33,396 nt of DNA from the IMG/VR virus record IMGVR_UViG_3300005404_000013, positions 1 through 33,396 of that record; one strand, 5' to 3'. Both the position numbers and the translations under genes were made by a program. Position 1 is the stretch's first letter. The number at the start of each line of letters is the position of its first letter. The DNA is from a virus (lineage: Duplodnaviria > Caudoviricetes). Shown here piece by piece: positions 1,601 through 20,783 of the stretch. The notes under the pieces are model-generated. The model ran no database searches. It saw only the letters and a list, made by a program, of their open reading frames with translations, and was not told where the DNA came from.

Positions 1601-4600
1601 TGATCAGACAAAACAGAATAATGGTACTGCATCTCTTTATAATGCAACAAATGCTATTATTGATAGCACTATTAAGAAGTTTGGTACTGATTCAATTAAG
1701 TTCCAAGCAGAGAACCATTATAGTGTTACAGACATCAATCTAAACGGTAAGGAATGGACACTCCAAGCATGGTTTAGAATTGAGAGTACTATTCATACTG
1801 CTGCTAACAGTTATCCAACATTCTTCTTCACTGAACCTAATGATGCTTCTAACCCTTCTAATGAATTAAGACTTTTCATTGATGGTGATCAGACTAGTGG
1901 TGATTATGGTAAGGTTAAAATTGCTGCTGCTGGTGTAGAGGTCATGGAGACCGCTAGTGCAACTATTTGGACTAACTTTGCTGCTGATGCTTGGGTTCAT
2001 ATTGCCTTTGTTAAGGATGAACCAACTCTCGGTAATTTCACATATACAGTCTTTAGTAATGGTACTCAGATTGGACAGTGGTCTACAACTACAGATATAC
2101 CAGTAGATAACGTATATGTTGGTGGTTTACTAACACCAACTGCAACTACTTCATTACTTGGTAATGTTGATGATTTCGTTATAGATGCAACTGCTCAGTA
2201 TACTGGATCATCATTTACTTCTCCTACAGCAGAAATTCCTGTACGTACTAATGACAATAGTATTGCACTTGTAAAACTTGATAGAGAACATTTAAAGCGT
2301 GGAACTCATACATTAAGTGGATTAAGTGATCATACTTCTGCTGTTATTGTTGAGGATTCAAATTGGACATATAACTCAACTACTGGACCTGTAGTAACCA
2401 ATTGGGCAATTGGACCTGGCGGATTACAAATCCTTGACTACTCTGATATAAACAGTCAACTTACACCTGGCACTTATACATTTGATAATGATTCATTCAT
2501 ATATGGATCTAAGACTTCTACTGTACCAACTCCAGGTGGTAAGAAGTTAATAATCAGTCCTGTAGTTACACCGAAGTATTATATTAAGGATGCTTCTTAT
2601 ACTAAGATTGATAGCGTTCAACAGATGGTATTTAATCAGGACGTTAAATTTACTAAGGGAACTATCTTACAACAGTATAATGATTCTGATGTTGTCGGTG
2701 CATTTGGAACTATCGTAGAAACACCAGTTGGTGAAATTGCAACACCTGGTCTTGGAACTACATATAAGATTGGTAAAATATATCCTGCAGGAGCAACATT
2801 TAATAATACAGACAAATTCAAAACCACTACTGCTGCTGATACTGAGTCAAACGTAATCTCCGACATAGTGTTCACGGCCGAACGTGTAGAAGCGGAATGG
2901 AAGGCTGCCACTGCATACACTGCTGGAGATGTTGTATATGCAAACGGTAAGTTCTACGCTGCTACTACAAATGCTACTTCTGGTGCAACTAGACCTTCAC
3001 ATAGTACTGGTAACCAATCTGACGGTGGTGTTTCATGGGATTATACAAGTAATGCAACTGATGCATTAGAACTTGATCTTGCTAATACTGCATATCCTGT
3101 TCCTAGACAACCAAAATGGAAGGAGTTAGTTATACATGAGGTTGGTGATGAAGTTTATAATGGTAGACAACTTTATAGATGTACAGTAAGTGGTCGTACA
3201 TCTAGGGTTGCTCCTACACATACTACTGGTACTGCAACTGATGGTACTGTAACTTGGGAATGGAGACAGACATTTGATCCTCTTAGCAGTTATGCTAGAT
3301 TTAAGACTTATGATGCTGCTGAACCATATTATCAGATCCAAGTTAATGAGATCTATCATGATTCTAATTCTATTGTTAATGATAGTCTAAGTATTGGTGG
3401 AACTATTACAGTTAATCCTAAAGTAGGTGAACCAACTGTTTTACAGATTAATAATATCAATAGTATTAAGAAAGTAACCATTCAAGCAATTCTTGATAAG
3501 ACTATTCTATTATCAACTGGTGGTCAAACAAGAACTGAAGATGTTTATTGTGTTGCTAACTCAAGGCATAATTTCTCTGCTGGTAATATTCTATTCACCG
3601 AAGGATTCTCTACTTCAGAATTTAATGGATCATTCTTTGTTAAGGAAGTATTCTCATCTAGAGATTTCACATTTACTACCCGTGCTATTCCTAGTGCTGA
3701 ACCAGCATTTGAAAATGCAAGTATTGCTAGAGTAGACATATACACCAAGCATCCTACATTGATGCTAATAAGGAATCATAATTATATCTTTGATATGAGT
3801 GATTCTTCCAACGCTGGATATTTCCTATCATTCTCTCAAGATAATGAATTCAAACTAGAATACTCATTTAACAATATTGAAAGATCAGGAACCCCTGGTG
3901 TATTTGATGGTACTAATGCACCATTTGTTAAATTTAAGATTGATGGTCAGGTAACAAATATTTCTTACTACTTCGACCCATCTAGAATTGGTAGTAATTC
4001 TCCTGTTGGTGCCCAATCCTTTATTGATGTTAAGAAGACTCCTTTCGATGGAACTTATACTGTCACGAAGATTATTGATGATACTAACTTCCAATTCCCA
4101 CTTGCATTCGAACCTGAGTTTACACAGGCTAATGTAGGTAATGATGATCAAGGGGTAGCATACTCTAAGTATTCAACTACATCACTTAAAGCAATTGGTC
4201 CTATCAATGCAATTAAACTAATATCTGCTGGTGGATTCTATAAGAAGTTACCTATTATCTCTGATATTGCATCATTCCGTCAGATTGAAAGAGTTAATAT
4301 AACTGCTGGTGGATCTGAATATGCAGTTGGAACTTATGATCAGGTACCTATTATTGGTGATGGTGAAGGTGGTCTTTGTCGTATAGAAGTTACAGTAGAT
4401 GAAACTATTGGTTCTGGAACTATTAGTAGTGTAACTGTTACAGATCCAGGTAAAGGTTATAAGACTGCAAGTATAGATGTTGATGGAATAACTGGAATTC
4501 TTGGACCTCAGTTGACTGGTTCTGGTGCAGAACTTGCTGTAATTATTCCTGATGAGGGAACTGGTGCTTCTGTATTCTTAACTGGTAAGAATATTGGTAA

Positions 4601-7600
4601 GATTAAGAAGTTGAAGAATAATGAGTTTGGTTATGGTTATTCACATGACTATACTCTGAAACCAGAAATTACCTTCCCAATTAACTTACAACTATTCAAT
4701 ACATCAATACTTTCACAGATCAAAATCACCAATCCTGGTGCTGGATATACTTCTCCACCAGCAGTCATCGTAACAGGTGGTGGTGGATTTGGTGCAGAAG
4801 CAATTGCTGTTGTTAAGAACAATCGTCTATCAGAAATTCAAATTAAGAATCCTGGTGCTGGATATAGTTCTGAACCAGTTGTTACTCTTAAATCTGAGTT
4901 TAACTACGTTGTTAACACTGATTTAGGATATCTACAATTTAACTTCCCACATGGAATTACACAGGGTGCTGCTATAACATTCCGTGCAGATGATGTTGGT
5001 AACACTGTAGGTGTTCTACCTCAACCTGGATCTGCTGGTTTGACTGCATTGATTGAAAATCAAATCTATTATGCTATTTCTGGTGAAGCAAATTCACTTG
5101 AAACTGATCAATTAAGATTTGCTCTAACACCTGCTGATGCTGAATCTGGCAACTATATCACTTTCGTAGATGGTTCTGCTGGTACTGGTTCTGGTCGTCA
5201 AGTACTTCTAACTGAGGTATTTGGTGGTGAAGCAGAAGCAGTAGTTGAGACTTCCGTATTCTTGGAAGGTGAGAGAGTTTATATGGGTGATAGTGAAGAT
5301 CAAGCAACCATATTTGCAACTGTCTCTACAAATGATGGTTGGCAGATTGGACCTAAGATCTTAAAACTAATTGATGCTACAGGAACATTTGAGGCTGGAT
5401 ATAGAGTCAATGGTACTGTATCTCGTGCATCTGGTGTTATTGATAATGTATCACTTGCTAAAGGTGTATTGAATATTGGTTCATTAACTGAGACACCAGG
5501 TAAATTTATTGATGATGTTGGTAAACCATCAGAGATTGTTCAGAAAGTTCAAGACTCCTTCTTCTATCAGAACTTCTCATATGTTATCAAATCTCAGATT
5601 CCTATTAATGAGTGGAAGCAACAAATTCTTGATAATAACCACCCTGCTGGTTTCAATATGTTTGGTCAGTTACAACTGACTGGTGGTAAAGACGTATCTG
5701 GACGTAAAGTTGGAACTGAGTTTATTAAGCAGGTTAATATTAATGAGTACTCCAATGTTAATGAAGTAACATCATTTGCTGCTGCTCAACCAATATATTC
5801 TGATTTCAATAACACTGAAGTACTTTTCCGTAAGAAGCGTTTAACTAACTCTGAGGAAATTCTAACTTCTATTGTTAAGAAATTGGATGATATCTCTGGT
5901 GACTTTGATGGTATTAAGAAAGGATTCCCTCTTACTGTAGAGAACCAACAGGTTATCGTTAAGAATGACCAGTTGTTAATTACATTGAATGGTGTTATTC
6001 AGGCACCTATCGATTCATATGATATTGTTGGTGGACAGATTGTATTTAAAGAAGCACCAAAGGCACCTTCTAAGATTGTCTACAAAAACGTTAGTGTTGA
6101 GTTCTTAAATATCACTCGTTTGAATTTAAGTGATGTTGGTGGTATATATCCTGAAATTGGTTATACAGTACAGGGTGATAATAGTGATACTTATGCACTT
6201 GTTGTTGCTACTGGTACTAATACAGTTGATGTTGTAGATTTACAAAATACTGGTGGATCAGCAATATTCGAACTTAATGAAGTAGTTAGAGTAAGTGCTC
6301 TAGGATGGAGTGGAAGACTTGATTCAGTAACGCTACTTAGTGCAGAAAACATATATGAATTTGATGAGACAGTTATTGGTACAAATCGCAGTAAGAATAA
6401 TCCAACTGCTCAAATAACTGAAATCAACTTGAATGAAGATGGTACTGCTGGTAATGATATAGTTTTATCTAAGACTTCTGGTACTGCTAAGTATGAAACT
6501 GGAGTATATGATTTTGATCTTCAAGATATCATATATTCAAATCGTTCAAACGTTGCTGCAAGAATAACATCTCAGGCACCTTATCCTGTTGGTACAGATG
6601 AGAATAGAGGTATTCAGGAATTAACTTCTGGATCTACATTCTATGGTCTATTATTTGAACGTCTAGTTAGTCAATCTTATCCTAATATTCTTCTAGACAA
6701 TATTGCTAAATCTACTGTTACTCCAACTGAACTTTTAGATAATGAGGCTCGTATAAATGGTGACTTCCTAGACTTCGAAGCAATTCGTTCTTCAGAGGTT
6801 ACATATACAGATTTGTCAAATGGTGTATTCAGTGTTGGTGATACACTTAGAAATATTAAGGTAAGATACAATAACCCAATTCTCGGATCCACATACGGTA
6901 TTGCTGCTAACAGACATGCTGATGGTTCTCGTTCTATAACCAGATGTAGAGATGAGATTGTTGACTTTGGTGATGCTCAGATATCAGTAGATCATCCAGA
7001 TTTCTATTATCCAGGACAGTCACAGACTGATGGAAGATCACGTTTCCGTGATGCTTATAGAATGATAATCAAGAATAAGGATTATATCGTAGCACAAGCA
7101 TATGTGGATATGGTTGCTCAGTATCCATCAACTTCTATACCTAGTTCTACTAAGTGTAAGAGAGACATGGCATACTATATCGATGCAGTTGCATACGATA
7201 TGTACTCTGGTGGTAATAAGTATGCACGTAAATTTATTACAGAATACTTTAGTGGAGCAAGTCTACAGTATATCAATGCACAGGTAACTGAAACTGTTTG
7301 GGGTTATTCTAAGTGTAGTGAGTATATGAATCAGGTGGTTACTAACCAACTATCTGGTACTATCACTGTTGACGGAACACCATACACAATATACCAAGAT
7401 ACAACTCTAACTGAAGGTAGAGCAAATTACACTGATACTTCAGGTAGTACTATTAGCAATACAAATAATGGTGCTTGTGCTGATGTTCGTGCTGCTCTTG
7501 ATACACTTAAGAATACTATTAGTGAAACACTTCTACAGAATCAGAACTTTGATGATATTGAGGCAACTGAACCATCTTACAATGCATCTGAGACTACATG

Positions 7601-10600
7601 TCGTCGTGACTTAGGTCTCTTTGTTGATGCATTAGCACAAGATGTTAAGAGTGGTGGTAATCTATCAAGCGTTAAGTTTGTTCGTTCATACTACAATACT
7701 GATGGTACTATCATTTCAGGTCTTCATGCTTCACAAGCAGGTACATCAATAACTCATGCTCGTGATCTTTCGAAGAAAGCAATTAACAACTTACTCTATG
7801 TTAAAGATCTAAGTTCAACAGGTTACAACCTAAATGATCCTACCACTTATAGTGGTGGTGTTGCTCCTGCACAATACTATGATGTTAACTATGCATCTGG
7901 TAATAATCAGACAGCAACGAATTGTGCTAACGTTCAATCTACGATTGATACTCTAACTGGCATCGTTACAACTGCATTTACTGCAGGTAATCAGAATAAT
8001 ATTAATGCACTTGCAAGTATTGATGATGGATCATTCCGTGATGGTGAAACTGTTCGTGTTGTTAAGATTGCTTATAAGGATAAGTCAGCTGGACTATTTT
8101 CTACTGGTAATGTAATTAAAGGTGTATCATCTGGTGCTTCAACAACACTTGAAGGTGTTAACTCTGGTCTAGGATGGATATTCAGTGATAGTAGTGGTGT
8201 AACAGGAACATTTACAGACCGTGAATATATCACTAACTCTACTCTTGTTAATACTGGTGGTGTTACTCAGAGTGTTATCGTTACTAAGTCTGAGTTAGCT
8301 AATTCCAAAAAATCGCTAAAATTTGCTTCTGGTGCATATCTTAAAGCTGTAGATACATATGACTTTGACTTTGACACAGGAGATTTCACACTTGAAGCAT
8401 GGATTAATCCCACTTCTGTAAGTGGCACACAGATGTTGTTCGACTTACGTAGAACTGCTGGATCAGGTTTAAGAGTTAATATGTTCGATAAGGCTATCCG
8501 TGTTTACAACGGAAGCACTAGCATCATACTTTCTGGTGACGTATTTAATACAGCAAATACTTGGTATCACGTTGCAGTCATAAGAAATGGCGGTGTGATG
8601 CAAGCATATGTCAATGGAACACAAGCAGGTAGTAATGCTGCTAATAGTGATGACTTTGGATATGGTCCTTGTTACATTGGATCTGATTTAGCAGGTTCCA
8701 ATGACTTCACTGGTAACATGGATAATGTTATCGTAAGAAAAGGAATTGCAACATTCACTGCTGCATTTACACCTCCTGTTGCTCCAGATTTCACTGATGA
8801 TAAGATCGTTCTAGGTTTAACAGGTGAGACACCATTTATATGTTCTACTACTGAAACTTATGCTAAGTTCACTGGTCAAACTATATCATCTGCAACTGCT
8901 AAGAAGATCGATTATGATTCTAAGCGTGTAATTATTGAAGATGTAGATCTTGGTAGAGATGAGCATCGTCGTTGTGCACAACAAGTACAACAGAATGATA
9001 AGTGGATTTCTGAGACTGCCGTTGCAATGATGAAGGCTAAGTTCCCAGACTTTGTTATTCGTGGTGATGATCCTGCAACTAATAACTACCTTGGTACTTA
9101 CTACTGCTTGAGGGATACTGAAGAATATATTATCGATGCTATCATTAAAGATCTTAAGTATGGTGGTAACTACTACACCACTGTTGCTGCTAAGGGATAC
9201 TTAACTGCTACTGGTGGATTAGATTTCGTTAATAAAGAACTTCTACAAACTCTATACACTTGGCAGAAAGTTGGTGAAATTATCAATTTTGTAATCACAA
9301 CAACAAGTACTGATTTAGAGAACTATGAAAGTGTTAAGTATACAGAAAGATTACGTGTACCTAACAACTTCTCATCACCTGCATCTTCTAATGTACAAAA
9401 TGAAGTTACAGCATTAGTTGATGGTATTCTTGATATTCTTGGACCTACTGGTGCTAGATATCGTGATGCTGGTGATGCTATGTGGCAGAACCGTGATTTC
9501 ATTGCTGAAGAGGTTGCTGCATATATTCAGAATAAGTGGCAGGTTGAAATTGATGGTACAACTTATGATAAGTTGGAGATGCCTGGTTATGGTCAACCAT
9601 ACTGTGAAAGAGATATTAAAGATTTCGTTATTCCTGGTATAATTGCCGACTTGATTACTGGTGGTAATGCTGGTACTAATGAAGTAATTGACAGGTATTT
9701 GGATGAAGATCAAGATATCCTTCATGTAGATGAAGAACTTCTTCCAATGTTGGATGCTATTGAATTTACTAAGTTCTTATCTATTAAAGCAGCAAACCAA
9801 CTCTTAGTTCAATTTGGTAACTCACCTGATGCAAATCAAGGTCAGACAAATATAGATGATTACTATACTGCTGTATACACACAAATTATACCTAAGACAG
9901 TTCATAATACTGATGCTGATTGGGATACAGTAACCTTCCCACCTGATCCACAAGGATATGATCCAGGACGTTCTGATGGAGATAGGTTCCTAGACGCAGC
10001 TGATATGATCGAAAGAAATAAGGATCAGATTGCTTGGGAAGCAGTTCATACAATGAACGATACTGCTAGATTCCAAGATCATACTTATCCTGAAGGTCAA
10101 AGTCAGCAAGATTGTGTTGATGATGTTAATGATTATCTTGATGCAGTTATTCACGATCTTCGTCTTGGTGGTAACAGTAAGGTTTGGGATGCTTCAAATT
10201 ACTATATCGAACCAGAAAATAATGGTATTAAGCACATTGCTGGTGAAGAAGATGCATCTATCTACACATATAAGTTAGCAAGAGATATGGCAATTCTCAC
10301 AATGAGAAATGCTTTTGGACGTGATAACTTCTATGCTCAAGGTGTTAATGATGTTAATACATTAGTTGGTGCTATTGATCCTGGTGTTGATTCATACGAT
10401 CAGAACCCAGTCATTTCAAGACAGATTGATGCTGCTAATATTATCGAACGTAATATTAGATTCATCTCAGAAGAAGCAGTATATCGTGCAAATATTCAAT
10501 ATCCACAACTTCATATCACAAATGGTGATAAGTCTTGTGTAGATGATATATGTGACTTCCTACGTTCCATGACCTTCAATATGAAGTATGGTGGAAACAG

Positions 10601-13600
10601 TAGAGTTTGGGATGCTGCTGATTTCTATAGAAAGGCATCAACATATCATTTAACAAATCAGATGCCAATATATGCCTTCAATGAGGCAAGAGATATGGCA
10701 ATTCAGGCTATGCGTAATATTCCAATTATTGCACGTGGTCAGAATATTCATGGTAAGGTTCAAACATTCTTTGAGCAATTAGACTTCTTCCCTTACAACA
10801 GTAAGGAACGTGATAATCCTAAGATGGAAGCATCACAATTGGTTGGTGGTATTAACGTTAATAAGTCTGCTGATACCTATCAGTTAATTCTTAATAACTC
10901 TCGCTTCGTTGCTGAGGAAGCAGTATATCGTTATACAAGAGATAATGATCTAACACCTGTAACTGAGTTTACTCCATCTGATGCAACATACGATGCTGCA
11001 ACTGGTGATCTAGTATTATCATTACCATCACATAATTTAACTACTAATGATTCTATCTCGATAGATGCAAATTCATTAATCTTTACTTGTGACCAAGATG
11101 ATCATGCTTCAGAGCATAGTTATCCTCGTGAAACTGATCCTTCATATAATGAGAGATTAGCAATCACTGCTGTTGGTACTAATGCACATACACCAACAGA
11201 TGCAGATTACAATGCTGAAACTGGTGCATTAACTTTAGATATTGCAGCACATGGATTAAGACAATCTGAAGCATATACTGTATCTGATGCAGATTACAAT
11301 CCTAAGACTGGTATTTTAAAACTTGCTGTTGCTAATCACAACTTTAGAAATGGTGACAGAATTAAGTTCTCTCATGATGCATTAATCTTCCAGTGCGATA
11401 ATGATAACTACAATACAAACCACACATATCCACGTAAGGGTGTTGACCCATCTAGTGATAAGTGGTTACCTGTAAGTGCTGTAACTGATGGTACCTTTGA
11501 GGTACAGATTGGTAAGACTGCTGCTGCTGGTCAACATAAGTTTGTTGCTAACAGTCAGTTGAATGTTACTGATGCTGATTACAACCCAACAACAGGTATA
11601 ATGACACTTACCAGTGCTGCACATGGCATCAATAATGGTGAGTTCATTAAGATTACTGACGGTTCATTAGACTTTACTTGTACACAAGGTGGCGGTACTT
11701 ATAGTTACCCTCGTGCACAAGTATCACAACACACTGCAGATACAGGTACAACATATAATCCAACTACAGGTATATTGAGCATCACAACAAGTTCTGCTCA
11801 TAACATGGCAAATGGTGAGTGGATTAAGTTTGCTGATAACGCATTAACCTTCACTTGTGGAAGAGATAATAATGCTACTAACCATACATATCCTCGTTCA
11901 TCTGACCCTGCTAGTGGTAAGTTCTTAAGAATATCAAATGTTACAGCAAGTACATTTGAAGTCAAAGTACTTGAGATTACTCCTTCAACTAACACAAGTG
12001 TTCATGCATTTGTAACTGGTGCAAATAATGGAATTACACATGCTGACCCTGCTGCTGCAGGATATGTAAGAGCATTCAACGTTGCTGCCGACACATTCGA
12101 TGTTCAGGTATTAGCAAATGCTCCTTCTACAAACACAACAGTCCACACATATACTGGTGGAACTGCATCTAATGCAATCACTAGAGCAACATTTGAGAAG
12201 GCAAATGATTCTGTCTTAATTGAAGATGGTGCACTTACATTTACATGTGATGCTGATAATCATCAATCACAACATCCATATCCAAGATATACTGATTATG
12301 CTAGTGACGAGTGGTTACCAATAACAGAAGCATGGAACGATAGTTTCAAAGTCGATGTACATGTTGCTCCAGTTATTGAGTACACTCCAACTGCTGCTTC
12401 ATTCACTCCGACTACTGGTCTTCTTGAATTAACAATCGGATCTCATGATCTCTCTATTGACTCTAAAGTCATGATCAAGACTGGAGGATTAACCTTCCGT
12501 TGTGATCAGGATGGTCAGTCAAGTGATCATGCATATCCAAGAAATACAATTGATACACATACCGCTGGTGCTGGTACAACATATGATCCTGTTACAGGTC
12601 TTATGACTATTAACACAGGTACCACACATGGTATTAAGGTAGGTGACTGGGTTAAGTTTGATGATGGTGCTGTAACCTTCCGTTGTGATGAAGATAGTCA
12701 ATCATCTGATCATGCATATCCAAGATCTACTGACCCTGTAAGTGGTAAGTGGTTACAAGTTTCCGCTGTTGCTGCACAAACATTTACAGTTAAAGTCTTA
12801 ACAACTACACCTTCCACAAACGTAACTACTCATGTATTCCAGAGTGGTACTGCTAATGGTATTAAGCAAAAGCGTGATAGATCATTCGAACAGCATGTTC
12901 CTGTTACTGCAATAACTGGTACAACTATTACTCTTGACGTTGGTGTTTCTTCTAATAACACAACTCACGTATGGCAGTCTGCTCTTGCTGGTGCTATTCA
13001 ATTCAACCCACTATATCAGCATACATTTGTTTCTGCTGTAACTGGTGGTGTTAAGAGTCAAGACGGTACTGTTACCGTAAATGTTGGAACAACTGCTGCT
13101 GTTAATTACACTCCAACTGCTGCTACATATGATCCTGAGACAGGTGACATGTGGTTGAATGTTGGTTTACATAACCTAACTGAAGGAACGACAATTAAAC
13201 TTGCTGATGATTCCTTAACATTCACATGTAGTATGGATAATAATGGTACAAACCATACTTATCCAAGAGCATCAGATCCAGTTAGAGATACCAATATCCC
13301 AATTAAAGAAGTTGGTACTATATCTAAGACAGTTACAGGTGCACTTTATGATCCTAATTCTGGTAATTTAGTTCTTACTGTACCTGCTCATGGATTCTCC
13401 AATGGTAACAGAGTTAGAATTGCAGACGGATCATTAGTATTCACATGTGCTGCTGATCAACATGCTACATGGCATAGATATCCACGTCCAACAGATCCAT
13501 TCAGTGATGAGTGGTTAGTTATCTCTGGAGTATCAACAGATTCATTCCAAGTTAATATTGGTGTTTCTCCTAATCAATCCGCACATACATTTATCAGTGC

Positions 13601-16600
13601 TTCTAACAATGGATTAGAGAAGCAAGATGGATCAATCATCATCAACGTTGGTTCTACACCAAATATCAACTACGATGTATCAAATGCAACTTATGATCAT
13701 CAAACTGGTGTAATGGTTCTAACCATTGGATCACATGGATTGAAGACAGGTGATAAATTAAAACTCGGTGCTGAAACTCTGAAGTTTACATGTGCAATGG
13801 ATGGAAACTCCGCACAGAAGACTTATCCAAGAAGACTTGCAGGTGATGGTGGAACAGACCCATTCTTCAATACTTCTATTAATGTTGATGCTGTAGGATC
13901 AACACAGCATACTGCTACTGATGCAACTTATGTACCTACAACTGGTGTAATGACACTAGAAATTAGTGGTCATAACTTTAATGCATCAACAACTCATACT
14001 GTAACTGGTGCACAGTATAACGCTAAGACTGGTGTAATGAAGATGACTCTAAACGGTCATGGATTTACTCCTGGCGATCAGATCAAGTTTAGTCCTAATG
14101 CATTGACATTCCAGTGCACAATGGATAGTGGAGCATCAAACCATACTTATCCAAGATCTAGTGATCCTGTTGCTAATAAGTGGTTAACAATCACATCTGT
14201 CACAACAAACACATTCGAAGTTATTGTTGGTAAATCTCCAATAGTTCAGTGGGATGTATCTAATGCTGAGTACGATCAGGCAACTGGTCATATGATTCTT
14301 ACTACACCTGGTCCTCACGGTCTTCGTGGTCACTCAGATCATACAGTTACAAGTGCAACATACACTGCTTCAAGCGGTCTAATAGTTCTTACTATTCCTA
14401 ATCATGGATTCTCTAATGGTGATAAGATTAGGATTGCTGATCATTCATTAACATTCACATGTAATCAGGATAGTCATCAATCTGAGCATACATATCCAAG
14501 ATCTACTGATCCTTCAAGTGGTAAGTTTATTACTATATCAAACGTAACTACAAATACATTTGAGTGTAATATTCTTCAGGGAACTTCACCAACTAACACT
14601 ACAGCACATACATTTATCACTGCTGCGAAAAATGGCGTTAGACGTGCTGGTGAGACTGTTAAACTTGAAGCAAATTCATTAACATTCCGTTGTGCACAAG
14701 ATGACTATGCTACAGATCATGCATATCCAAGATCTAGTGACCCTGCATACAACGTTCCTCTTCATATAGTTCATTCTACAGAGAAGACAATCACTGTTGA
14801 TGTTGGTGTTGCTGCTAGTTCAAATCAGTTTGCTCACAACTTCGTTAATGCTGCTACTGGTCAAACAACACATACTATTACTGATGCATCATACACAGCA
14901 TCAAGTGGTGTAATGACTCTTACTGTTCCTAAGCATGGATTTGCATTAGGTGAACAGATTAAGATTGATAATAATGGAATCACATTCAAATGTGAGATGG
15001 ATGATTATGCTACAGATCATGCATATCCACGTGCTACTGACCCTGCTAGTGATAAGTGGTTGACTATATCTAACATTACTGAAAACACATTTGATGTTAA
15101 TGTTGGTAATACTCCACTATCCACCTATACTCCAACTGGTGCTTCATATAATCCAACTACAGGTAATCTACAAATTGTTATTGGATCACACACTCTTGCA
15201 GAAGGAGACAGTATTAAGTTAGCAGAGAATGCTATTACTTTCCGTTGTGATGAAGATGGACAAGCAAGTGATCATGCATATCCTAGAAGTCTAACTGATT
15301 CACATACTGCTGTAGCTGGTGGTACATCATACAATCCTACTACTGGTGTTTTGACTCTACAAACTGCTGGACCTCATGGTTTGGCAACTGGAGATTGGAT
15401 TCAGATCGCTCAGAACTCATTAACATTCAGATGTGATGAAGATGGTCAGGCAACAGATCATACATATCCTCGTTCATCTGACCCTGTAAATGGTCGTTGG
15501 TTGAAGATTACATACGTTAATGCAAGTAAGTTTAGTGTTGTTGTACTTGATGATATTCCTTCAACAAATACAACTACTCACGTATGTACAGCAACATCTG
15601 CTAGTGGAATCACATCTAAGCGTGACCCATCATACGATAATGCATTACCTATCATTGCTGCTGATTCTACTTCAATCACAATCAATGTTCTGAATACTGC
15701 ACCATCTACAAATACTACAACTCATGTATTCCAATCTGCACTTACTAACTCAGTAGTTGCAGGTGGTAACTATGCACATATGTTTGTAAGTTCTGTTGGT
15801 GGAGCACTTAAGAAACAGACTAAGGCATTAATTACTGGTGGTAATTATGCACATACATTTGTTTCTGCAACAAGTGGTGGAATTGAGAAGGCAAATGACT
15901 ATGTACAGATTGTAAATGATTCACTAGTCTTCCGTTGTGGTAAGGATGACTTTGGTTCACTTCATGCATATCCTCGTGCAACTGATCCGTTCAGTGGAAG
16001 ATGGTTACCAATATTCAATGTACAGACAAATGAATTTGATGTAAATGTTGGAATATCACAAAACGAATCTCAACACAATTTTGCATCTGCTGTTGCTAAT
16101 GGAATTCTAAGACAGAGTGGTACTGTCACAATTAACGTTGGTTATGATTCTCTTCCTGCTAATCAACATGCTCATGTATGGGTAGGAATGGAGAATAAGT
16201 TAACTGCTGCTGCAGGTACAACTTATGATCCAACAACAGGTGTAATGAAGATTAAAACTGCTTCTGCTCATAAGTTGGAGAATGATGAATGGGTTAAGTT
16301 TGATGATGATGCTGTAACCTTCACCTGCACACAAGGTGGTGGTAATCATTCATATCCACGTGCTACTGACCCAATGTCAGGTAGATGGTTGAAGGTTCAA
16401 AATGTAACCACTGACACATTCGAAGTTGTTGTTCTTGATGTTATTCCTTCAACTAACGTTACTGTTCATACATTTGTAACTGGTGCAAATAATGGTATCA
16501 CTAAGGCATGTGTTATCACTGGTGGAATTCATAAGCACACATTCGTAAGTGCAACTTCTGGTGCTATACAAACTGGTGGTGCTTACACTCATAAGTTTGT

Positions 16601-19600
16601 ACGTGCACATGATAATGCAATTAACAAACTTTATACAATTCCTGGTGGAAATCAGAATTGCTGTGATGACGTTGAGCGTATATTAAGAGGTGTTGCATAC
16701 CATATTGCATATGGTGGTAACAATGAAATATATGATATGGCAATGGAGTATGTTACTCAGACTCACCTCAACAATTACTTCGAGGAGAAATGGAGTCTTG
16801 GTATTATGACTCTAACCAAGGAGATCATCACTCAAATTATTAGAAATATTCAGACTCCTGTATATGGTAATCATGGTCTTCTACAGTATAGAGATACAAC
16901 AATCACTACTGATGTAACACAACCAGCATGTCCAACAGAGGTCGCTGCTGCAACTACATTAATTGACATCGTAATGGATGCAATTACTACCAATGCAGTT
17001 AGTGGTACTCGCACATTACCTACAGGTTCAGGTAATGGTCCTTGTGCTAATGTCGCTGCAACAATAACTACCATGTTTGGTATTATTACAGATACCATTA
17101 GTTCTAATGCAAGTTTGGATGGTGTTGGTCGTCAGATACCATCTATCTGGCCATGTCATTATCACGGTGATGTTGCTGAGAGAGATCTAACAGTTACATA
17201 TCAAACTGCAGCTGCAACTTGGAATCAGACATGTGCAACTACTGCTTCTGCTATAAGCACATTATTTGATGTTGTTGTTAATACAATAGAAAGTGCTAAG
17301 ACTAATACAAACCACTTAAGTGGTTTAACAAGAACTGTACCACCATACGCTAATACACTTTATCAGCATTATACTTGCTATAACGTTGTATCTGCAATGA
17401 CAACTCAGTTCGATTTAATTATCGATACTCTTGGTGCTGGTACATACTCTAATCGTAACGTTGCACATTACTTAAGATTTAATGATAAAGCAATCACTGA
17501 TCGTGCTCTTGCTGCAACTCAAGCAAATTATCCTGTAGGAGATAATCCAGATCTAGCATTCTTTAAGAACGTTCTTGAAGCTGGTTTATATGATTTAACT
17601 ACAAATGGTAATGCTTCTGCGTTTGAACTTGCTGGAACATGGTTCGATGGTGAAGGTCAATTTATCGCTTATCCTACAGTAGATAGAATTCGTTTACTCT
17701 ATGGTTTGAATAAGGTAAGAGAATATTGTAAGGAAGTTGTTCAAGATCCAACTAATGCTGGATGGAATACATATGCTGTTTATCGTTATCCTGAAGTAAA
17801 TGGATATCGTCGTCACGTAGAATGGGATCAGGAAACTACAGAATTTAATTTTGATAGTTCACTAAACTGCTTAGAATTTGCTATAGAAAGAGCAACATTC
17901 CCAACAGATAACTTGGTAACATTTAATGCTGCCACTGATGTAATTAATTACTCTAATCAGTATGATGAAGGTGTTGATTACAATACTGATCCTGCTCTAG
18001 TAAATCTAACTCCAACAATTGAAGTTGGATATGAAAGAGTAGAGAATCGTGCACGAATTAATAGAACTAACTTCTTCCGTCGTGGTGATGTTGTTAAGTA
18101 TGTTCTTGCATCTGCTCAATCACTATCTGGTGCTAATGATCAAGATTACTACTACGTCCTCAATGCACAACCACAGTGGTTTGAGATTGCTCGTATGCCT
18201 AATCATGATGCAAGATACCGTGCATTTGCATTAGATACAACTAATGCTGGTAACCAGCAATTCTTCACAGTTCGTCGCTCTGGAATTGATCGTGTTGCTA
18301 ACACTTACGGTGTACGTGATATTGATCAACCAATTACTGCTGGATTCAATATTGCTGATGTTCTAGTTGGTACAACAACTGGTGCATCTGCTGAAATCTC
18401 ATCTAGTTTCATTAATAGTGCGAATGTCATTAAGACCTTCAAGTACTATGGTTTAAATACCATGTCTGCCACCGCATTTACAAACGGTGAGCAAGTTCAG
18501 GTACAAGGTGCAACTGCTAATAATGGTTATGTAATGCAGAGAGTTCTTAGAGATGAGAATAACTTAGGTTGGATTAAACTTGAACTTGTTCAGGGAACTA
18601 TTTCCGCTGGTCAAACTATTGAAGGTGTTGATTCTGGTGCAACTGCTGTTGTAACTTCAGTCATAGAAGATCGTCTATTAATCAATGAGAAGGTAGGTGA
18701 ATTCCTACAAGGTGATTGGTTGTTTAAAGATACAACTGCTACAGAAGCATACGCAAGTGCTTATGATAATAAGTCAGGTGTTCTTACAGATAATAGCGGT
18801 GGTCGTGTAACGATAGACGTTGAAACTATTACTGGTGCTTTCACATCTGGTGATATTATCTACGGATCTAAGACAGAAAAAATTCTCGACTTTGTAGGTA
18901 TTACAGACGGTGGATCTCCAATTACAATTAACACCTACGTACATGGTGAGAAGGTTAGAAAATTAACTCTATCTCAGGTAATTACGGATAGTGAATATTC
19001 TGGTACATTTGTCGCTGGTGATAGAGTTTATCTACTTCAGGGAACTACACCAACCAATCCTGGCTGGTGGGGATATGTAACCAAGTATGATTACAGACCT
19101 GACGATAACGTTAACGATCTCTATATTGCTGGATTACAAAATTACTGGACAGGTGATGCATCAGAACCAACAACTGAACCTGATGGATCTTTAGCTGCAA
19201 CTGCTGGATATAACATTGGTAAGTTTGATAACTTACAGAACTTCCCATTAATCTATGCAACAGCATCAAATTACACTGAGACAGGTTATTCATCATACGG
19301 TAAGATTATTGCTATTGAACAATCTGGTATTACTGCTCGTTGCTGGTTAGAAGATGTACAAGGTGATTTTGTAGATAACATGACAGTTAAGTCCGATAAT
19401 GGATGGATTGCTGGTGTTACATCTGCTAAGAGTTTAATTGGACGTGTTGATCGTTACTTCCGTGGATTTGACGGTACGCAGACACAGTTTAATCTTACAA
19501 TCTCTAATGGTCAGCAATATCTACCTGATCCTGCTGGTCACATGTTGATCTTCGTTAATGGAATTCTACAACCACCTGGTGCTACTGGTGCTTACACTGC

Positions 19601-20783
19601 ATCCTCAGACATTATCACATTCGCTGAACCACCTGAAGTTGGATCTGATTTCATCGGATACTACATTGGTAAATTACGTCAGTTAGATGATATCTCCTTC
19701 GAGTTTGACTCATTGAGATCTTCATTCAACCTTAAGCAGAGTGGTGGATTCTACTCACTAACACTAACCGAAGGTGTTCAGTCTAACGTGATTAAACCAG
19801 AGAATAATATCATGGTTTCACTGAATGGTGTTATTCAGGAACCAGGCGTAGGTTACGAACTGGTTGGTTCTAGAATCATCTTCGCTGAAGTTCCACGTGC
19901 GGGTACAACATTCGTTGGATTCTCATACATTGGTTCTGACGCAGACGTTATTGCTGCTACAGTCGTACCTCCAATTGAGGCAGGTGACCAACTCTTCATC
20001 GAAGGTGAAGATGAGATTGTTCCACGTGAGGTTGCTCTAATTGAGTCTTCTAACTCTCTTGTAACATTCGAATACACTGGCACAGTTAAAGGACGTAATG
20101 CAGAAGCATTAGCAAGTGTTCGCTCTGGTACCATTGATCAAGCAATCATTACCAACCCAGGTAACGGTTATACTCAACGTCCTTCAGTTAGTGTTATTTC
20201 ATCTACTGGATTTGATGGTCGTGTACGTGCATTAATGGGCGTTGCTAGAATCGATGTTGGATCTGCAGGTATTGGATATGCTCAACCAATCGTTGAGGTA
20301 CAAAATACCGTTGAAGATACATTTGTATCTCCAGATGGACCTCCAGTTAACGGTGGATTTGATGTCTACGCAGGTGAAGGAATCAATGCTCAAACTGGTG
20401 AACCAATTGTCGTTGAAGCTGGTTTGATTGCTATCACACGTAATCCTTCCAACGTAACAGTTAACCAAGGTCAGACTGCTAGCTTCACAGTTGTCGCACA
20501 CTTCAGTGCTGCAGATGGTGATCCTGCTGAGACAACAGTCGGACTCAACTATCAGTGGCAAGTCAAGCAGTACGGTGAAACTGCATGGTCTAATATCACT
20601 GGTGCTACAGCAGCAACATATAGCAGTAATTCAACCATACAGGCTGATGATGCAGATGAATTCCGTGTTGCAATCACTTACGCTGGTGCAACTCCTGTGT
20701 ACTCCAACTCCGCAGTTCTATCTGTACAAACTGGTAACACAGTAGTCTCGAACTTCACTCCTGACCAAATCTTTCAACAATAA
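3..20783 (+). CDS. gp7: Giant baseplate wedge initiator (T4 gp7-like) multidomain virion protein; 5'-truncated by the window (>6,926 aa)
   Basis: Frame 3 is open from nt 3 (TETLSIADSAIGNSGAPAVTFDV...) to TAA at 20781-20783, so the TTG at 144 is not the true start. Contains the motif QDSFFYQNFSYVIKSQIPINEWKQQILDNNHPAGFNMFG (5550-5667), comparable to the T4 gp7 'IKS..P..W......HPxGF' motif, and lies upstream of gp8 in T4 wedge gene order. Confidence 0.85.
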   Translation, partial: TETLSIADSAIGNSGAPAVTFDVSGLGGFQYNNVATTNSGNGNNALKLNVTIDGAGAATAVTVGNNGGLAYAINNTITIADSVLGNNGAPALTCDVATIVAPQTYSGVAATSTTGSGSGATFDVTIDANGAVTLAVATAAGLGYAEDDQLQIQDSNLGNSGAANIDFQVNTLKAPPLYSNVPTSTNGSGTGCTFQVTINTDGSVANLNVTAPGNGYQAGDTLTIADANVGNNGAAAITCNIATVSGGALYNGVAPLGTTGNGTGGTFNITVDSGGAIASLVVATPGRGYAAGEVITIADSTIGNRGAANFTFEITATQGITYSGISAWSTNGSGINAVFDVVIDNLGAFTSMTATNRGQNFALSDQVTITDATLGNQGAGGLVMAVASIQGHQYNGVAPTSNGNGENATFNITIDGTGAASAVVVANAGQEHQVGNVFTVTDAQIGNFGGTNLTFDVASLAAIQYTNITAAGGSGVNASINVNVAANGATTIEMNKTGRNYKSSEVLTVTDSQIGSYGYSNITFNIASVINVFDQTKQNNGTASLYNATNAIIDSTIKKFGTDSIKFQAENHYSVTDINLNGKEWTLQAWFRIESTIHTAANSYPTFFFTEPNDASNPSNELRLFIDGDQTSGDYGKVKIAAAGVEVMETASATIWTNFAADAWVHIAFVKDEPTLGNFTYTVFSNGTQIGQWSTTTDIPVDNVYVGGLLTPTATTSLLGNVDDFVIDATAQYTGSSFTSPTAEIPVRTNDNSIALVKLDREHLKRGTHTLSGLSDHTSAVIVEDSNWTYNSTTGPVVTNWAIGPGGLQILDYSDINSQLTPGTYTFDNDSFIYGSKTSTVPTPGGKKLIISPVVTPKYYIKDASYTKIDSVQQMVFNQDVKFTKGTILQQYNDSDVVGAFGTIVETPVGEIATPGLGTTYKIGKIYPAGATFNNTDKFKTTTAADTESNVISDIVFTAERVEAEWKAATAYTAGDVVYANGKFYAATTNATSGATRPSHSTGNQSDGGVSWDYTSNATDALELDLANTAYPVPRQPKWKELVIHEVGDEVYNGRQLYRCTVSGRTSRVAPTHTTGTATDGTVTWEWRQTFDPLSSYARFKTYDAAEPYYQIQVNEIYHDSNSIVNDSLSIGGTITVNPKVGEPTVLQINNINSIKKVTIQAILDKTILLSTGGQTRTEDVYCVANSRHNFSAGNILFTEGFSTSEFNGSFFVKEVFSSRDFTFTTRAIPSAEPAFENASIARVDIYTKHPTLMLIRNHNYIFDMSDSSNAGYFLSFSQDNEFKLEYSFNNIERSGTPGVFDGTNAPFVKFKIDGQVTNISYYFDPSRIGSNSPVGAQSFIDVKKTPFDGTYTVTKIIDDTNFQFPLAFEPEFTQANVGNDDQGVAYSKYSTTSLKAIGPINAIKLISAGGFYKKLPIISDIASFRQIERVNITAGGSEYAVGTYDQVPIIGDGEGGLCRIEVTVDETIGSGTISSVTVTDPGKGYKTASIDVDGITGILGPQLTGSGAELAVIIPDEGTGASVFLTGKNIGKIKKLKNNEFGYGYSHDYTLKPEITFPINLQLFNTSILSQIKITNPGAGYTSPPAVIVTGGGGFGAEAIAVVKNNRLSEIQIKNPGAGYSSEPVVTLKSEFNYVVNTDLGYLQFNFPHGITQGAAITFRADDVGNTVGVLPQPGSAGLTALIENQIYYAISGEANSLETDQLRFALTPADAESGNYITFVDGSAGTGSGRQVLLTEVFGGEAEAVVETSVFLEGERVYMGDSEDQATIFATVSTNDGWQIGPKILKLIDATGTFEAGYRVNGTVSRASGVIDNVSLAKGVLNIGSLTETPGKFIDDVGKPSEIVQKVQDSFFYQNFSYVIKSQIPINEWKQQILDNNHPAGFNMFGQLQLTGGKDVSGRKVGTEFIKQVNINEYSNVNEVTSFAAAQPIYSDFNNTEVLFRKKRLTNSEEILTSIVKKLDDISGDFDGIKKGFPLTVENQQVIVKNDQLLITLNGVIQAPIDSYDIVGGQIVFKEAPKAPSKIVYKNVSVEFLNITRLNLSDVGGIYPEIGYTVQGDNSDTYALVVATGTNTVDVVDLQNTGGSAIFELNEVVRVSALGWSGRLDSVTLLSAENIYEFDETVIGTNRSKNNPTAQITEINLNEDGTAGNDIVLSKTSGTAKYETGVYDFDLQDIIYSNRSNVAARITSQAPYPVGTDENRGIQELTSGSTFYGLLFERLVSQSYPNILLDNIAKSTVTPTELLDNEARINGDFLDFEAIRSSEVTYTDLSNGVFSVGDTLRNIKVRYNNPILGSTYGIAANRHADGSRSITRCRDEIVDFGDAQISVDHPDFYYPGQSQTDGRSRFRDAYRMIIKNKDYIVAQAYVDMVAQYPSTSIPSSTKCKRDMAYYIDAVAYDMYSGGNKYARKFITEYFSGASLQYINAQVTETVWGYSKCSEYMNQVVTNQLSGTITVDGTPYTIYQDTTLTEGRANYTDTSGSTISNTNNGACADVRAALDTLKNTISETLLQNQNFDDIEATEPSYNASETTCRRDLGLFVDALAQDVKSGGNLSSVKFVRSYYNTDGTIISGLHASQAGTSITHARDLSKKAINNLLYVKDLSSTGYNLNDPTTYSGGVAPAQYYDVNYASGNNQTATNCANVQSTIDTLTGIVTTAFTAGNQNNINALASIDDGSFRDGETVRVVKIAYKDKSAGLFSTGNVIKGVSSGASTTLEGVNSGLGWIFSDSSGVTGTFTDREYITNSTLVNTGGVTQSVIVTKSELANSKKSLKFASGAYLKAVDTYDFDFDTGDFTLEAWINPTSVSGTQMLFDLRRTAGSGLRVNMFDKAIRVYNGSTSIILSGDVFNTANTWYHVAVIRNGGVMQAYVNGTQAGSNAANSDDFGYGPCYIGSDLAGSNDFTGNMDNVIVRKGIATFTAAFTPPVAPDFTDDKIVLGLTGETPFICSTTETYAKFTGQTISSATAKKIDYDSKRVIIEDVDLGRDEHRRCAQQVQQNDKWISETAVAMMKAKFPDFVIRGDDPATNNYLGTYYCLRDTEEYIIDAIIKDLKYGGNYYTTVAAKGYLTATGGLDFVNKELLQTLYTWQKVGEIINFVITTTSTDLENYESVKYTERLRVPNNFSSPASSNVQNEVTALVDGILDILGPTGARYRDAGDAMWQNRDFIAEEVAAYIQNKWQVEIDGTTYDKLEMPGYGQPYCERDIKDFVIPGIIADLITGGNAGTNEVIDRYLDEDQDILHVDEELLPMLDAIEFTKFLSIKAANQLLVQFGNSPDANQGQTNIDDYYTAVYTQIIPKTVHNTDADWDTVTFPPDPQGYDPGRSDGDRFLDAADMIERNKDQIAWEAVHTMNDTARFQDHTYPEGQSQQDCVDDVNDYLDAVIHDLRLGGNSKVWDASNYYIEPENNGIKHIAGEEDASIYTYKLARDMAILTMRNAFGRDNFYAQGVNDVNTLVGAIDPGVDSYDQNPVISRQIDAANIIERNIRFISEEAVYRANIQYPQLHITNGDKSCVDDICDFLRSMTFNMKYGGNSRVWDAADFYRKASTYHLTNQMPIYAFNEARDMAIQAMRNIPIIARGQNIHGKVQTFFEQLDFFPYNSKERDNPKMEASQLVGGINVNKSADTYQLILNNSRFVAEEAVYRYTRDNDLTPVTEFTPSDATYDAATGDLVLSLPSHNLTTNDSISIDANSLIFTCDQDDHASEHSYPRETDPSYNERLAITAVGTNAHTPTDADYNAETGALTLDIAAHGLRQSEAYTVSDADYNPKTGILKLAVANHNFRNGDRIKFSHDALIFQCDNDNYNTNHTYPRKGVDPSSDKWLPVSAVTDGTFEVQIGKTAAAGQHKFVANSQLNVTDADYNPTTGIMTLTSAAHGINNGEFIKITDGSLDFTCTQGGGTYSYPRAQVSQHTADTGTTYNPTTGILSITTSSAHNMANGEWIKFADNALTFTCGRDNNATNHTYPRSSDPASGKFLRISNVTASTFEVKVLEITPSTNTSVHAFVTGANNGITHADPAAAGYVRAFNVAADTFDVQVLANAPSTNTTVHTYTGGTASNAITRATFEKANDSVLIEDGALTFTCDADNHQSQHPYPRYTDYASDEWLPITEAWNDSFKVDVHVAPVIEYTPTAASFTPTTGLLELTIGSHDLSIDSKVMIKTGGLTFRCDQDGQSSDHAYPRNTIDTHTAGAGTTYDPVTGLMTINTGTTHGIKVGDWVKFDDGAVTFRCDEDSQSSDHAYPRSTDPVSGKWLQVSAVAAQTFTVKVLTTTPSTNVTTHVFQSGTANGIKQKRDRSFEQHVPVTAITGTTITLDVGVSSNNTTHVWQSALAGAIQFNPLYQHTFVSAVTGGVKSQDGTVTVNVGTTAAVNYTPTAATYDPETGDMWLNVGLHNLTEGTTIKLADDSLTFTCSMDNNGTNHTYPRASDPVRDTNIPIKEVGTISKTVTGALYDPNSGNLVLTVPAHGFSNGNRVRIADGSLVFTCAADQHATWHRYPRPTDPFSDEWLVISGVSTDSFQVNIGVSPNQSAHTFISASNNGLEKQDGSIIINVGSTPNINYDVSNATYDHQTGVMVLTIGSHGLKTGDKLKLGAETLKFTCAMDGNSAQKTYPRRLAGDGGTDPFFNTSINVDAVGSTQHTATDATYVPTTGVMTLEISGHNFNASTTHTVTGAQYNAKTGVMKMTLNGHGFTPGDQIKFSPNALTFQCTMDSGASNHTYPRSSDPVANKWLTITSVTTNTFEVIVGKSPIVQWDVSNAEYDQATGHMILTTPGPHGLRGHSDHTVTSATYTASSGLIVLTIPNHGFSNGDKIRIADHSLTFTCNQDSHQSEHTYPRSTDPSSGKFITISNVTTNTFECNILQGTSPTNTTAHTFITAAKNGVRRAGETVKLEANSLTFRCAQDDYATDHAYPRSSDPAYNVPLHIVHSTEKTITVDVGVAASSNQFAHNFVNAATGQTTHTITDASYTASSGVMTLTVPKHGFALGEQIKIDNNGITFKCEMDDYATDHAYPRATDPASDKWLTISNITENTFDVNVGNTPLSTYTPTGASYNPTTGNLQIVIGSHTLAEGDSIKLAENAITFRCDEDGQASDHAYPRSLTDSHTAVAGGTSYNPTTGVLTLQTAGPHGLATGDWIQIAQNSLTFRCDEDGQATDHTYPRSSDPVNGRWLKITYVNASKFSVVVLDDIPSTNTTTHVCTATSASGITSKRDPSYDNALPIIAADSTSITINVLNTAPSTNTTTHVFQSALTNSVVAGGNYAHMFVSSVGGALKKQTKALITGGNYAHTFVSATSGGIEKANDYVQIVNDSLVFRCGKDDFGSLHAYPRATDPFSGRWLPIFNVQTNEFDVNVGISQNESQHNFASAVANGILRQSGTVTINVGYDSLPANQHAHVWVGMENKLTAAAGTTYDPTTGVMKIKTASAHKLENDEWVKFDDDAVTFTCTQGGGNHSYPRATDPMSGRWLKVQNVTTDTFEVVVLDVIPSTNVTVHTFVTGANNGITKACVITGGIHKHTFVSATSGAIQTGGAYTHKFVRAHDNAINKLYTIPGGNQNCCDDVERILRGVAYHIAYGGNNEIYDMAMEYVTQTHLNNYFEEKWSLGIMTLTKEIITQIIRNIQTPVYGNHGLLQYRDTTITTDVTQPACPTEVAAATTLIDIVMDAITTNAVSGTRTLPTGSGNGPCANVAATITTMFGIITDTISSNASLDGVGRQIPSIWPCHYHGDVAERDLTVTYQTAAATWNQTCATTASAISTLFDVVVNTIESAKTNTNHLSGLTRTVPPYANTLYQHYTCYNVVSAMTTQFDLIIDTLGAGTYSNRNVAHYLRFNDKAITDRALAATQANYPVGDNPDLAFFKNVLEAGLYDLTTNGNASAFELAGTWFDGEGQFIAYPTVDRIRLLYGLNKVREYCKEVVQDPTNAGWNTYAVYRYPEVNGYRRHVEWDQETTEFNFDSSLNCLEFAIERATFPTDNLVTFNAATDVINYSNQYDEGVDYNTDPALVNLTPTIEVGYERVENRARINRTNFFRRGDVVKYVLASAQSLSGANDQDYYYVLNAQPQWFEIARMPNHDARYRAFALDTTNAGNQQFFTVRRSGIDRVANTYGVRDIDQPITAGFNIADVLVGTTTGASAEISSSFINSANVIKTFKYYGLNTMSATAFTNGEQVQVQGATANNGYVMQRVLRDENNLGWIKLELVQGTISAGQTIEGVDSGATAVVTSVIEDRLLINEKVGEFLQGDWLFKDTTATEAYASAYDNKSGVLTDNSGGRVTIDVETITGAFTSGDIIYGSKTEKILDFVGITDGGSPITINTYVHGEKVRKLTLSQVITDSEYSGTFVAGDRVYLLQGTTPTNPGWWGYVTKYDYRPDDNVNDLYIAGLQNYWTGDASEPTTEPDGSLAATAGYNIGKFDNLQNFPLIYATASNYTETGYSSYGKIIAIEQSGITARCWLEDVQGDFVDNMTVKSDNGWIAGVTSAKSLIGRVDRYFRGFDGTQTQFNLTISNGQQYLPDPAGHMLIFVNGILQPPGATGAYTASSDIITFAEPPEVGSDFIGYYIGKLRQLDDISFEFDSLRSSFNLKQSGGFYSLTLTEGVQSNVIKPENNIMVSLNGVIQEPGVGYELVGSRIIFAEVPRAGTTFVGFSYIGSDADVIAATVVPPIEAGDQLFIEGEDEIVPREVALIESSNSLVTFEYTGTVKGRNAEALASVRSGTIDQAIITNPGNGYTQRPSVSVISSTGFDGRVRALMGVARIDVGSAGIGYAQPIVEVQNTVEDTFVSPDGPPVNGGFDVYAGEGINAQTGEPIVVEAGLIAITRNPSNVTVNQGQTASFTVVAHFSAADGDPAETTVGLNYQWQVKQYGETAWSNITGATAATYSSNSTIQADDADEFRVAITYAGATPVYSNSAVLSVQTGNTVVSNFTPDQIFQQ
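1670..2240 (+). other. LamG/ConA-like lectin beta-sandwich domain 1 in gp7
   Basis: KKFGTDSIKF...EWTLQAWF...WVHIAFVK...VFSNG...YVGG...GNVDDFVI...YTGSSFTSPT follows the Laminin_G_3 pattern seen in phage proteins. Confidence 0.8.
2890..3265 (+). repeat. Two CBM5/12 (ChtBD3)-like Trp/Tyr carbohydrate-binding modules in gp7
   Basis: AEWKAATAYTAGDVVYANGKFYAA...PSHSTG...DGGVSWDY and PKWKELVIHEVGDEVYNGRQLYRC...PTHTTG...DGTVTWEW. Confidence 0.65.
8305..8820 (+). other. LamG/ConA-like lectin domain 2 in gp7
   Basis: SLKFASGAYL...FDFDTGDFTLEAWINP...WYHVAVIRNGG...YVNG...YIGS...FTGNMDNV...FTPP. Confidence 0.85.
10959..16628 (+). repeat. 18 nested ~105-aa His/Cys beta-domain repeats (YxPxTG..HG..GD.IK..LTFxCxxD..HxYPRxxDP..W..I..F.V.V..HxF)
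   Basis: I counted 18 N-terminal 'Y/F-x-x-x-T/S-G' openers, 18 'YPR' cores and 18 C-terminal 'H-x-F/W/Y/C' closers over 1,890 codons. Confidence 0.92.
19440..19935 (+). repeat. Two 'FDG/S..F.L...LNG(I/V)xQxP...Y.....I.FxExP' modules, with a third copy at ~5890-6080
   Basis: FDGTQTQFNLT..VNGILQPP..ITFAEPP; FDSLRSSFNLK..LNGVIQEPG..IIFAEVP; FDGIKKGFPLT..LNGVIQAP..IVFKEAP. Confidence 0.8.
20420..20735 (+). other. C-terminal Ig-like (I-set-like) domain of gp7
   Basis: ITRNPSNVTVNQGQTASFTVVA...LNYQWQ...WSNITGATAATY...DDADEFRVAIT...SNSAVLSV. Confidence 0.8.

Follow-up and report, generated by a model that had tools for sequence, protein, structure and literature searches.

A predicted nest of globin-like and beta-barrel domains, about twelve levels deep, in a giant virion protein of cyanophages

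The window analysed here is the complete 33,396-nucleotide sequence of IMG/VR virus record IMGVR_UViG_3300005404_000013 (Duplodnaviria; Caudoviricetes), a 33.4-kb viral fragment (18% complete) that likely comes from a T4-like marine cyanobacterial virus. Its giant open reading frame (positions 3–20783, + strand, 6,926 amino acids, 5′ end open) encodes a cyanomyophage virion protein, with a match to phrog_701 running along its length. In this protein we find four nested, predicted globin units with a tree of 18 small beta-barrels in the B-E loop of the innermost one, together probably forming an extendable host-attachment arm on the baseplate. Taken separately, the nested architecture is very likely, and the host-attachment role, which we infer, is an evenly balanced call. 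A first reading of the letters alone (the original prediction) had proposed nested helical domains with the whole beta tree inserted inside one of them, and this is confirmed here with two corrections. The parts of the nest are as follows.

Positions 9453–9812, + strand: globin unit U3, helices A-G, outermost stalk globin, level 1; Cys at 9603, CERD
Positions 9978–10313, + strand: U4, helices A-G, level 2, within the U3 G-H loop; Cys at 10113, CVDD
Positions 10413–10721, + strand: U5, helices A-G, level 3; Cys at 10536, CVDD
Positions 10857–10949, + strand: first half of U6, helices A-B, level 4, within the U5 G-H loop
Positions 10950–16628, + strand: barrel tree, 18 small beta-barrel units nesting up to 8 deep in the B-E loop of U6; deepest unit at 15312–15611
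Positions 16629–16850, + strand: second half of U6, helices E-G; Cys at 16659, CCDD
Positions 16923–16997, + strand: closer H1, helix H of U6
Positions 17037–17111, + strand: closer H2, helix H of U5
Positions 17226–17300, + strand: closer H3, helix H of U4
Positions 17370–17444, + strand: closer H4, inferred helix H of U3 (by elimination, with weak sequence support)

Layout of the helical units

Profiles of the helical unit were built for four parts, namely the opening helices (O), the Cys core (C), helix G and the closer (H), and the token string of the window reads OOCHCH OCH OC OC OC O[18 barrels]C HHHH OC. When the helical tokens were shuffled, 2 of 200,000 strings could be parsed as brackets. 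The window sequence contains no N and the nested region lies entirely in the single open frame 3–20783, where all motifs and Cys positions quoted in the original prediction were found, including the four closers in a row (PACPTEV, GPCANV, QTCATT and YTCYNV, here H1 to H4). Four consecutive units had been said to lack an adjacent closer; the number is three, as the fourth (Cys 16659) has PACPTEV 90 residues past its core Cys. Adjacent pairs have a core-Cys-to-closer spacing with a median of 92 residues (5–95% range 87–119, n = 267), so U6 has its closer at the usual distance, leaving three open units and then four closers.

A clean insertion of the barrel tree

The split of U6, a unit that starts at about 10860–10950 and was predicted to resume at 16630–16725 after about 1,890 residues, is also borne out. 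Its opening-to-core distance is 1,931 residues in the window versus 37 residues in 11 proteins and 7 loci, giving an insert of 1,894 residues. The homologue set analysed comprises 120 of 189 matches, and U6 is uninterrupted in 11 of these 120, so that the test set beforehand, homologues lacking the beta block at precisely this loop, returned a clean indel. In local alignments, which we used to fix the junction because the long gap was broken up in a global alignment with a low gap cost, the two halves of U6 match residues 6103–6139 and 6140–6420 of protein P0001, where they are contiguous. An assembly artefact was considered and rejected, since a barrel block stands at the same site on two other contigs (L004, 97% identical, 18 units; L005, 73% identical, 24 units).

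In other phages barrels entered the B-E loop of U5 independently, in one to three copies and a few residues from the site used in the window, and the G-H loop of U5 holds, depending on the relative, nothing, U6, another insert, or 1–28 barrels. At three loci (L069:8493–10895, L071 and L082) this G-H loop has, instead of U6, an insert of about 200 residues that is rich in Gly and Trp and looks LamG-like by eye. At about 20 loci (L034–L042 and others) a block of at least 20 barrels follows helix G of U5 and continues past the end of the DNA retrieved.

Bracket architecture among homologues

A balanced-bracket parse was obtained for 97 of 121 proteins, after two changes to the parse filters (isolated strong closers were kept, and weak core hits inside barrels were dropped). 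Among the parsed architectures are pure tandems of four to six free units, nests with depths of four, five and six, and branched trees. In these 97 proteins, 38 barrel blocks lie between O and C, 33 between C and H and 5 elsewhere. Some chains carry copies of whole domains: in P0093 an inserted unit, closer included, shares 86% identity over 170 residues with a unit that stands free in the same chain, and in P0012 a cassette of two units and two closers is 73% identical over 329 residues to the cassette preceding it.

Other layouts were seen beside these. Residues 689–2840 of P0114 hold 11 globin units in a branched nest of up to five levels, formed mainly via the B-E loop. A second family (P0063 and kin: P0012–P0015, P0063–P0110) consists of proteins of about 4,000–5,900 residues in which as many as eight globin units form a six-level nest near the N-terminus; its members in cultured phages are named short tail fibre or YapH.

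Predicted structures and fold identity

In place of the fused construct suggested with the original prediction, we modelled with AlphaFold a natural homologue, L013, that has four units and no barrels and shares 445 of 741 residues with the window (771 residues, 31-row alignment, predicted local distance difference test score (pLDDT) 75, predicted template modelling score 0.60). A second-look structural alignment of this model gave phycobiliproteins in 50 of 50 rows, ending at model residues 713–726, the end of H3. Its tightest rows begin at U4, with 163–714 matched to phycoerythrin beta (Z 16.5, root-mean-square deviation (rmsd) 2.3, 144 residues aligned). A wide search added haemoglobin rows at 303–655 (Z 6.4) and 305–652 (Z 5.7), which run from U5 through the end of H2. 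The model is thus predicted to complete U4 with H3 and U5 with H2. In Foldseek, the phycoerythrin rows for L013 have a probability of 1.00. For L038, U5 was modelled together with the single barrel that its B-E loop holds (pLDDT 78); this model aligns over residues 1–277 with residues 32–184 of phycoerythrin beta 5aqd_M (Z 13.9, rmsd 2.8), and the U5 globin is predicted to close around the single inserted barrel.

Several lines point to the same fold. Helical units reach VIA Z scores of 16–17 against phycoerythrin beta. PF00502 matches in the window sum to 35.5 and 25.6 bits against a cut-off of 22.2; taken per unit, U1 by itself exceeds the cut-off with 28 bits and U5 stays below it with 15.9. 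A profile of 30 complete units matched phycobiliproteins only among the best 60 of 123 rows, with a top E-value of 8.5e-7 and a span of helices A-B-E. The helical units are therefore predicted to be globin domains like the phycobiliproteins, with which the cyanobacterial host harvests light, and the closers their helix H, an identity that the original prediction, which called the domains helical, did not contain. They behave as phycobiliprotein-fold domains and are not classed as phycobiliproteins. With the beta subunits of phycoerythrin and phycocyanin they share, as judged from models of homologues, the globin fold through helix H, as well as the Cys and Asp of helix E and the PGG motif of the B-E loop. 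They lack the N-terminal X-Y helices, which in phycobiliproteins serve alpha-beta pairing; units start at helix A, and matches begin at residue 32–40 of the phycobiliprotein chain. Further unlike phycobiliproteins, the globins here are parts of one giant chain, split by inserts, and CXRD is present in only four of eight window units.

Order in which closers pair with units

Indel mapping, duplicated cassettes and the predicted structure of the natural homologue agree that the closers pair with the units in reverse order, as had been predicted. All 42 three-unit homologues are without U6, and the closer they lack is H1 in 40, H2 in 2 and H4 in none; forward pairing predicts loss of H4, so that reverse order is supported. 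In S-WAM1 and S-SZBM1, a homologue of H2 directly follows U5. Comparing the similarity matrix of units with that of closers, reverse order fits better in 23 of 24 related proteins, with one tie (r 0.62–0.91 for reverse versus –0.14 to 0.73 for forward order). Of 86 self-contained units taken from other architectures, 36 are nearest to U3, and 25 of these 36 have a closer nearest to H4. The U3–H4 pair follows by elimination and is weakly suggested by this sequence evidence.

A forward pairing, or a swap of closers between chains of an oligomer, would leave no out-and-back nest. We regard this as highly improbable, although it draws on two observations: in nearest-neighbour comparisons forward order came out ahead in all 6 six-unit proteins and in 7 of the 12 with five units, and the closers are alike, so that exchange between chains lies beyond what a single-chain model can exclude. 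Set against it are the persistence of H4 in all 42 three-unit homologues, the closers carried inside duplicated cassettes, and the completion of U4 with H3 in the L013 model. When natural homologues were checked for forward order, the finding that would have spoken against the prediction, they did not overturn it. The out-and-back stalk with the tree at its tip holds as a topology only.

A number of points weigh against the nested interpretation. Nearest-neighbour pairing is mixed, with reverse ahead of forward in 32/43, 8/8, 5/12 and 0/6 proteins, and is too noisy to decide the order. In the six-unit family, where indels were mapped among near-identical paralogues, the lost unit and closer fit reverse order exactly in 4 of 12 cases and forward order in 0 of 12. 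The homologues are kin, and the counts therefore overstate independence. As for the grammar, 24 of 121 proteins have no parse, 77 of 121 were parsed in the first pass before the two filter changes, and 55 of the 97 parsed proteins were permitted one unclosed last unit. On the structural side, the models are of homologues rather than of the window's own 2,666-residue region; searches with the L013 model gave zero rows joining U3 to H4; rows joining U5 to H2 all have Z below 8; row 195–646 (8j2y_B) is a clean fit to neither pairing; and Foldseek returned no match at E ≤ 0.001 for the large L013 model.

The barrel tree and total depth

Plain pattern matching failed for the barrels, and they were parsed with profiles for five parts per barrel; 2 weak profile hits were dropped and 3 terminal strands were added by eye. 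The resulting 90 beta tokens (18 barrels of five parts) parse to a depth of 8, and 0 of 100,000 shuffled strings do so. Four globin levels and eight barrel levels make a total depth of 12 when level 1 is the outer helical unit. A depth of about 13 had been predicted; the deep nesting stands and the figure does not, though an alternative reading of a fused terminal strand near 14830 could give a depth of 13.

The barrel inserted in the L038 U5 model matches the FCCH domain of ubiquitin E1 (4p22_B, Z 8.4, rmsd 2.5) and a barrel of the phi92 endosialidase (4hiz_A 253–340, Z 8.0, rmsd 1.9); the Pfam E1_FCCH match to the barrels is weak. Both are small inserted beta-barrels like those of the nest, a likeness that at Z near 8 is moderate only, and the endosialidase barrel presumably binds sugar. 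These known barrels occur singly, whereas here 18 copies are nested in one another.

Proposed growth of the nest

At the level of sequence, the bracket grammar, the clean indels and the whole-domain copies show that entire domains have been copied into two permissive loops. Each globin probably entered the G-H loop of the preceding one as a complete domain, and the barrel tree the B-E loop of the innermost. Both domain types probably have ends that lie close together, so that a copy placed in a surface loop would leave the host domain intact. Repeated insertion would lengthen and branch the arm with its anchored baseplate ends untouched, and the barrels and other tip modules would be its variable binding parts; variation of the tip modules fits a receptor-binding part. 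The natural intermediates, from tandem to branched, illustrate how a nest can grow by whole-domain pasting into loops. The nest also raises a question of folding, as three globins would await their last helix for about 2,000 to 2,500 residues.

Relation to known systems

Streptococcal antigen I/II and the D0-D3 domains of flagellin form out-and-back stalks in which the chain returns and a variable domain stands at the tip. These use long paired segments, whereas each step here is a globin minus its last helix on the outbound path.

The closest parallel is Si3 of the cyanobacterial RNA polymerase beta′ subunit (RpoC2), a six-level recursive insertion (PMC13114784). Recursive insertion in the sense of inserted domains that host further domains, with branching, is found here as well, and the two systems share A1-B1-C-B2-A2 nesting, branching nodes and the use of one small domain family as both host and insert. 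They differ in depth (about 12 versus six, with counting conventions that may differ by one), in the number of domains (22 versus eight) and in the use of two nesting folds, globin and barrel, in a virion protein. An insert of 1,894 residues in a host of about 160 also departs from the rule of PMC13114784 that inserts are smaller than their hosts. Among the 50 structural rows listed for the barrel no entry of the Si3-type hybrid motif (HABAS) was recognised; FCCH and endosialidase folds were matched. Recursive domain insertion is already known from Si3, and the nest described here doubles the six levels of the published showcase and mixes two folds. The words 'phage' and 'globin' do not occur in the available Si3 text of PMC13114784, and the available parts of PMC10151467 and PMC11480375 contain no virion globin. 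We found no description of globin domains or nesting in cyanophage virion proteins in a literature that left most subscription journals outside coverage, and phage entries may exist in the ECOD supplement of PMC13114784.

Conserved cysteines: pigment or staples

The helix E motifs of the window fall into two groups, CXRD in U0–U3 (CRRD, CKRD, CLRD and CERD) and others further in (CVDD in U4 and U5, CCDD in U6), with no Cys in U7; within the stalk (U3–U6), CXRD is kept only in the outermost globin. This split between U0–U3 and U4–U6 is conserved in 51 relatives. Among 464 distinct units we count 204 CxRD, 192 CxDD and 34 CxHD, with a profile that favours Asp. CXRD is the attachment motif of phycobiliproteins and of the self-loading BBAGs (PMC10151467). 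The closer Cys precedes the end of the alignment by 19 residues, which would place it in register with beta Cys153 (from alignment end points with no gap assumed, on the 172-residue chain 6jpr_B).

One alternative keeps the same architecture and gives the globins covalent bilins, so that a pigmented arm senses or responds to light and gates adsorption. We consider it possible but unlikely. It would account for the retention of CXRD in U0–U3 (in U3, 50 of 51 relatives) and of the closer Cys in H3 and H4 (51 of 51 each, putatively in the register of beta Cys153), and units related to those of the window occur in P-HM1 and P-HM2, phages without adsorption in the dark (PMC6628666). It is opposed by the replacement of CXRD with CxDD or CxHD in U4 (51 of 51 relatives), U5 (50 of 51) and U6 (9 of 9), by the photoinactivity of the BBAG holoproteins tested (PMC10151467), and by the possibility that the light effect resides in host receptors; PMC6628666 ascribes light-dependent adsorption to host receptors and/or tail fibres. 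Bilin binding is, on the motifs, more likely for U0–U3 than for the inner stalk. A stronger version, in which a captured phycobiliprotein beta subunit gave rise to a bilin-loaded, twelve-deep arm whose globin stalk absorbs light and thereby moves the barrel tree to gate adsorption, is improbable in our view; if true, it would give phage-encoded bilin enzymes a target in the virion. The long-open question of a phage-borne sensor for light-dependent adsorption becomes testable.

It is likewise doubtful that the conserved Cys form disulfides that staple the nested domains together, with a globin fold that is purely structural. The arrangement invites the idea: 376 of 464 distinct units have a Cys in helix E and another where helix H begins, and each barrel has a single conserved Cys. 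Yet the H2 Cys is lost in 18 of 51 relatives without loss of the core Cys in U3–U5, U2 never has a closer Cys, and the two corresponding Cys of phycocyanin beta each bind a chromophore of their own (PMC6614406).

Host phages and gene setting

Relatives of the helical region were found in 345 phage records, every one named Synechococcus, Prochlorococcus or Cyanophage, which places relatives of phycobiliproteins in a virion protein of these phages; the nearest are S-SZBM1, S-WAM1 and P-TIM40, at 42–44% identity. Orthologues of the giant protein in S-WAM1 and S-SZBM1 are labelled 'baseplate wedge initiator'. The S-SZBM1 orthologue (6,619 residues) is part of the virion proteome, with 71 peptides from purified virions, and long tail fibres were not seen in that phage by the authors (PMC9146016). 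Its gene lies after a wedge subunit gene and before wedge genes, the position held by the T4 baseplate wedge initiator gp7 between the gp6 and gp8 wedge genes. In the window the giant frame is followed, in order, by genes for a YHYH protein, a gp9/10-like protein, an unnamed gene, gp8 and a DUF4815 protein; the gp8 match thus stands downstream, and the upstream side is cut. A search of positions 3903–6902 and 18003–20780 for homology to solved gp7 gave zero PDB matches at E 0.1.

Other features of the giant protein

Further domains in the same frame are listed here.

Positions 6900–7991, + strand: globin units U0 and U1, with U1 (7035–7547) in the B-E loop of U0; both CxRD
Positions 8349–8729, + strand: LamG / concanavalin A-like domain (PF13385, E 3.5e-21)
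Positions 8955–9452, + strand: U2, a self-contained globin unit, CLRD, with a closer that lacks Cys
Positions 17445–17897, + strand: U7, a divergent globin-like unit without the core Cys

For U7, the closer profile detected no closer. In the upstream nest at 6900–7991, U1 occupies the type of loop in U0 that in U6 holds the barrel tree; 10 relatives (P0017 type) have the U0/U1 pair nested via the G-H loop instead. The cut 5′ end of the frame (positions 3–1600) has about eight tandem Gly/Thr-rich repeats of about 60 residues each, and positions 2895–3290 hold two repeats that resemble carbohydrate-binding modules (PF02839, weak at E 7e-5 and under the cut-off). A short strand motif, G-D/E-T-hydrophobic, is repeated at 6810–6900, 8030–8290 and 18240–19400 on either side of the helical region, with some copies apparently truncated, and these flanking repeats may be halves of an outer domain with the stalk inserted in it.

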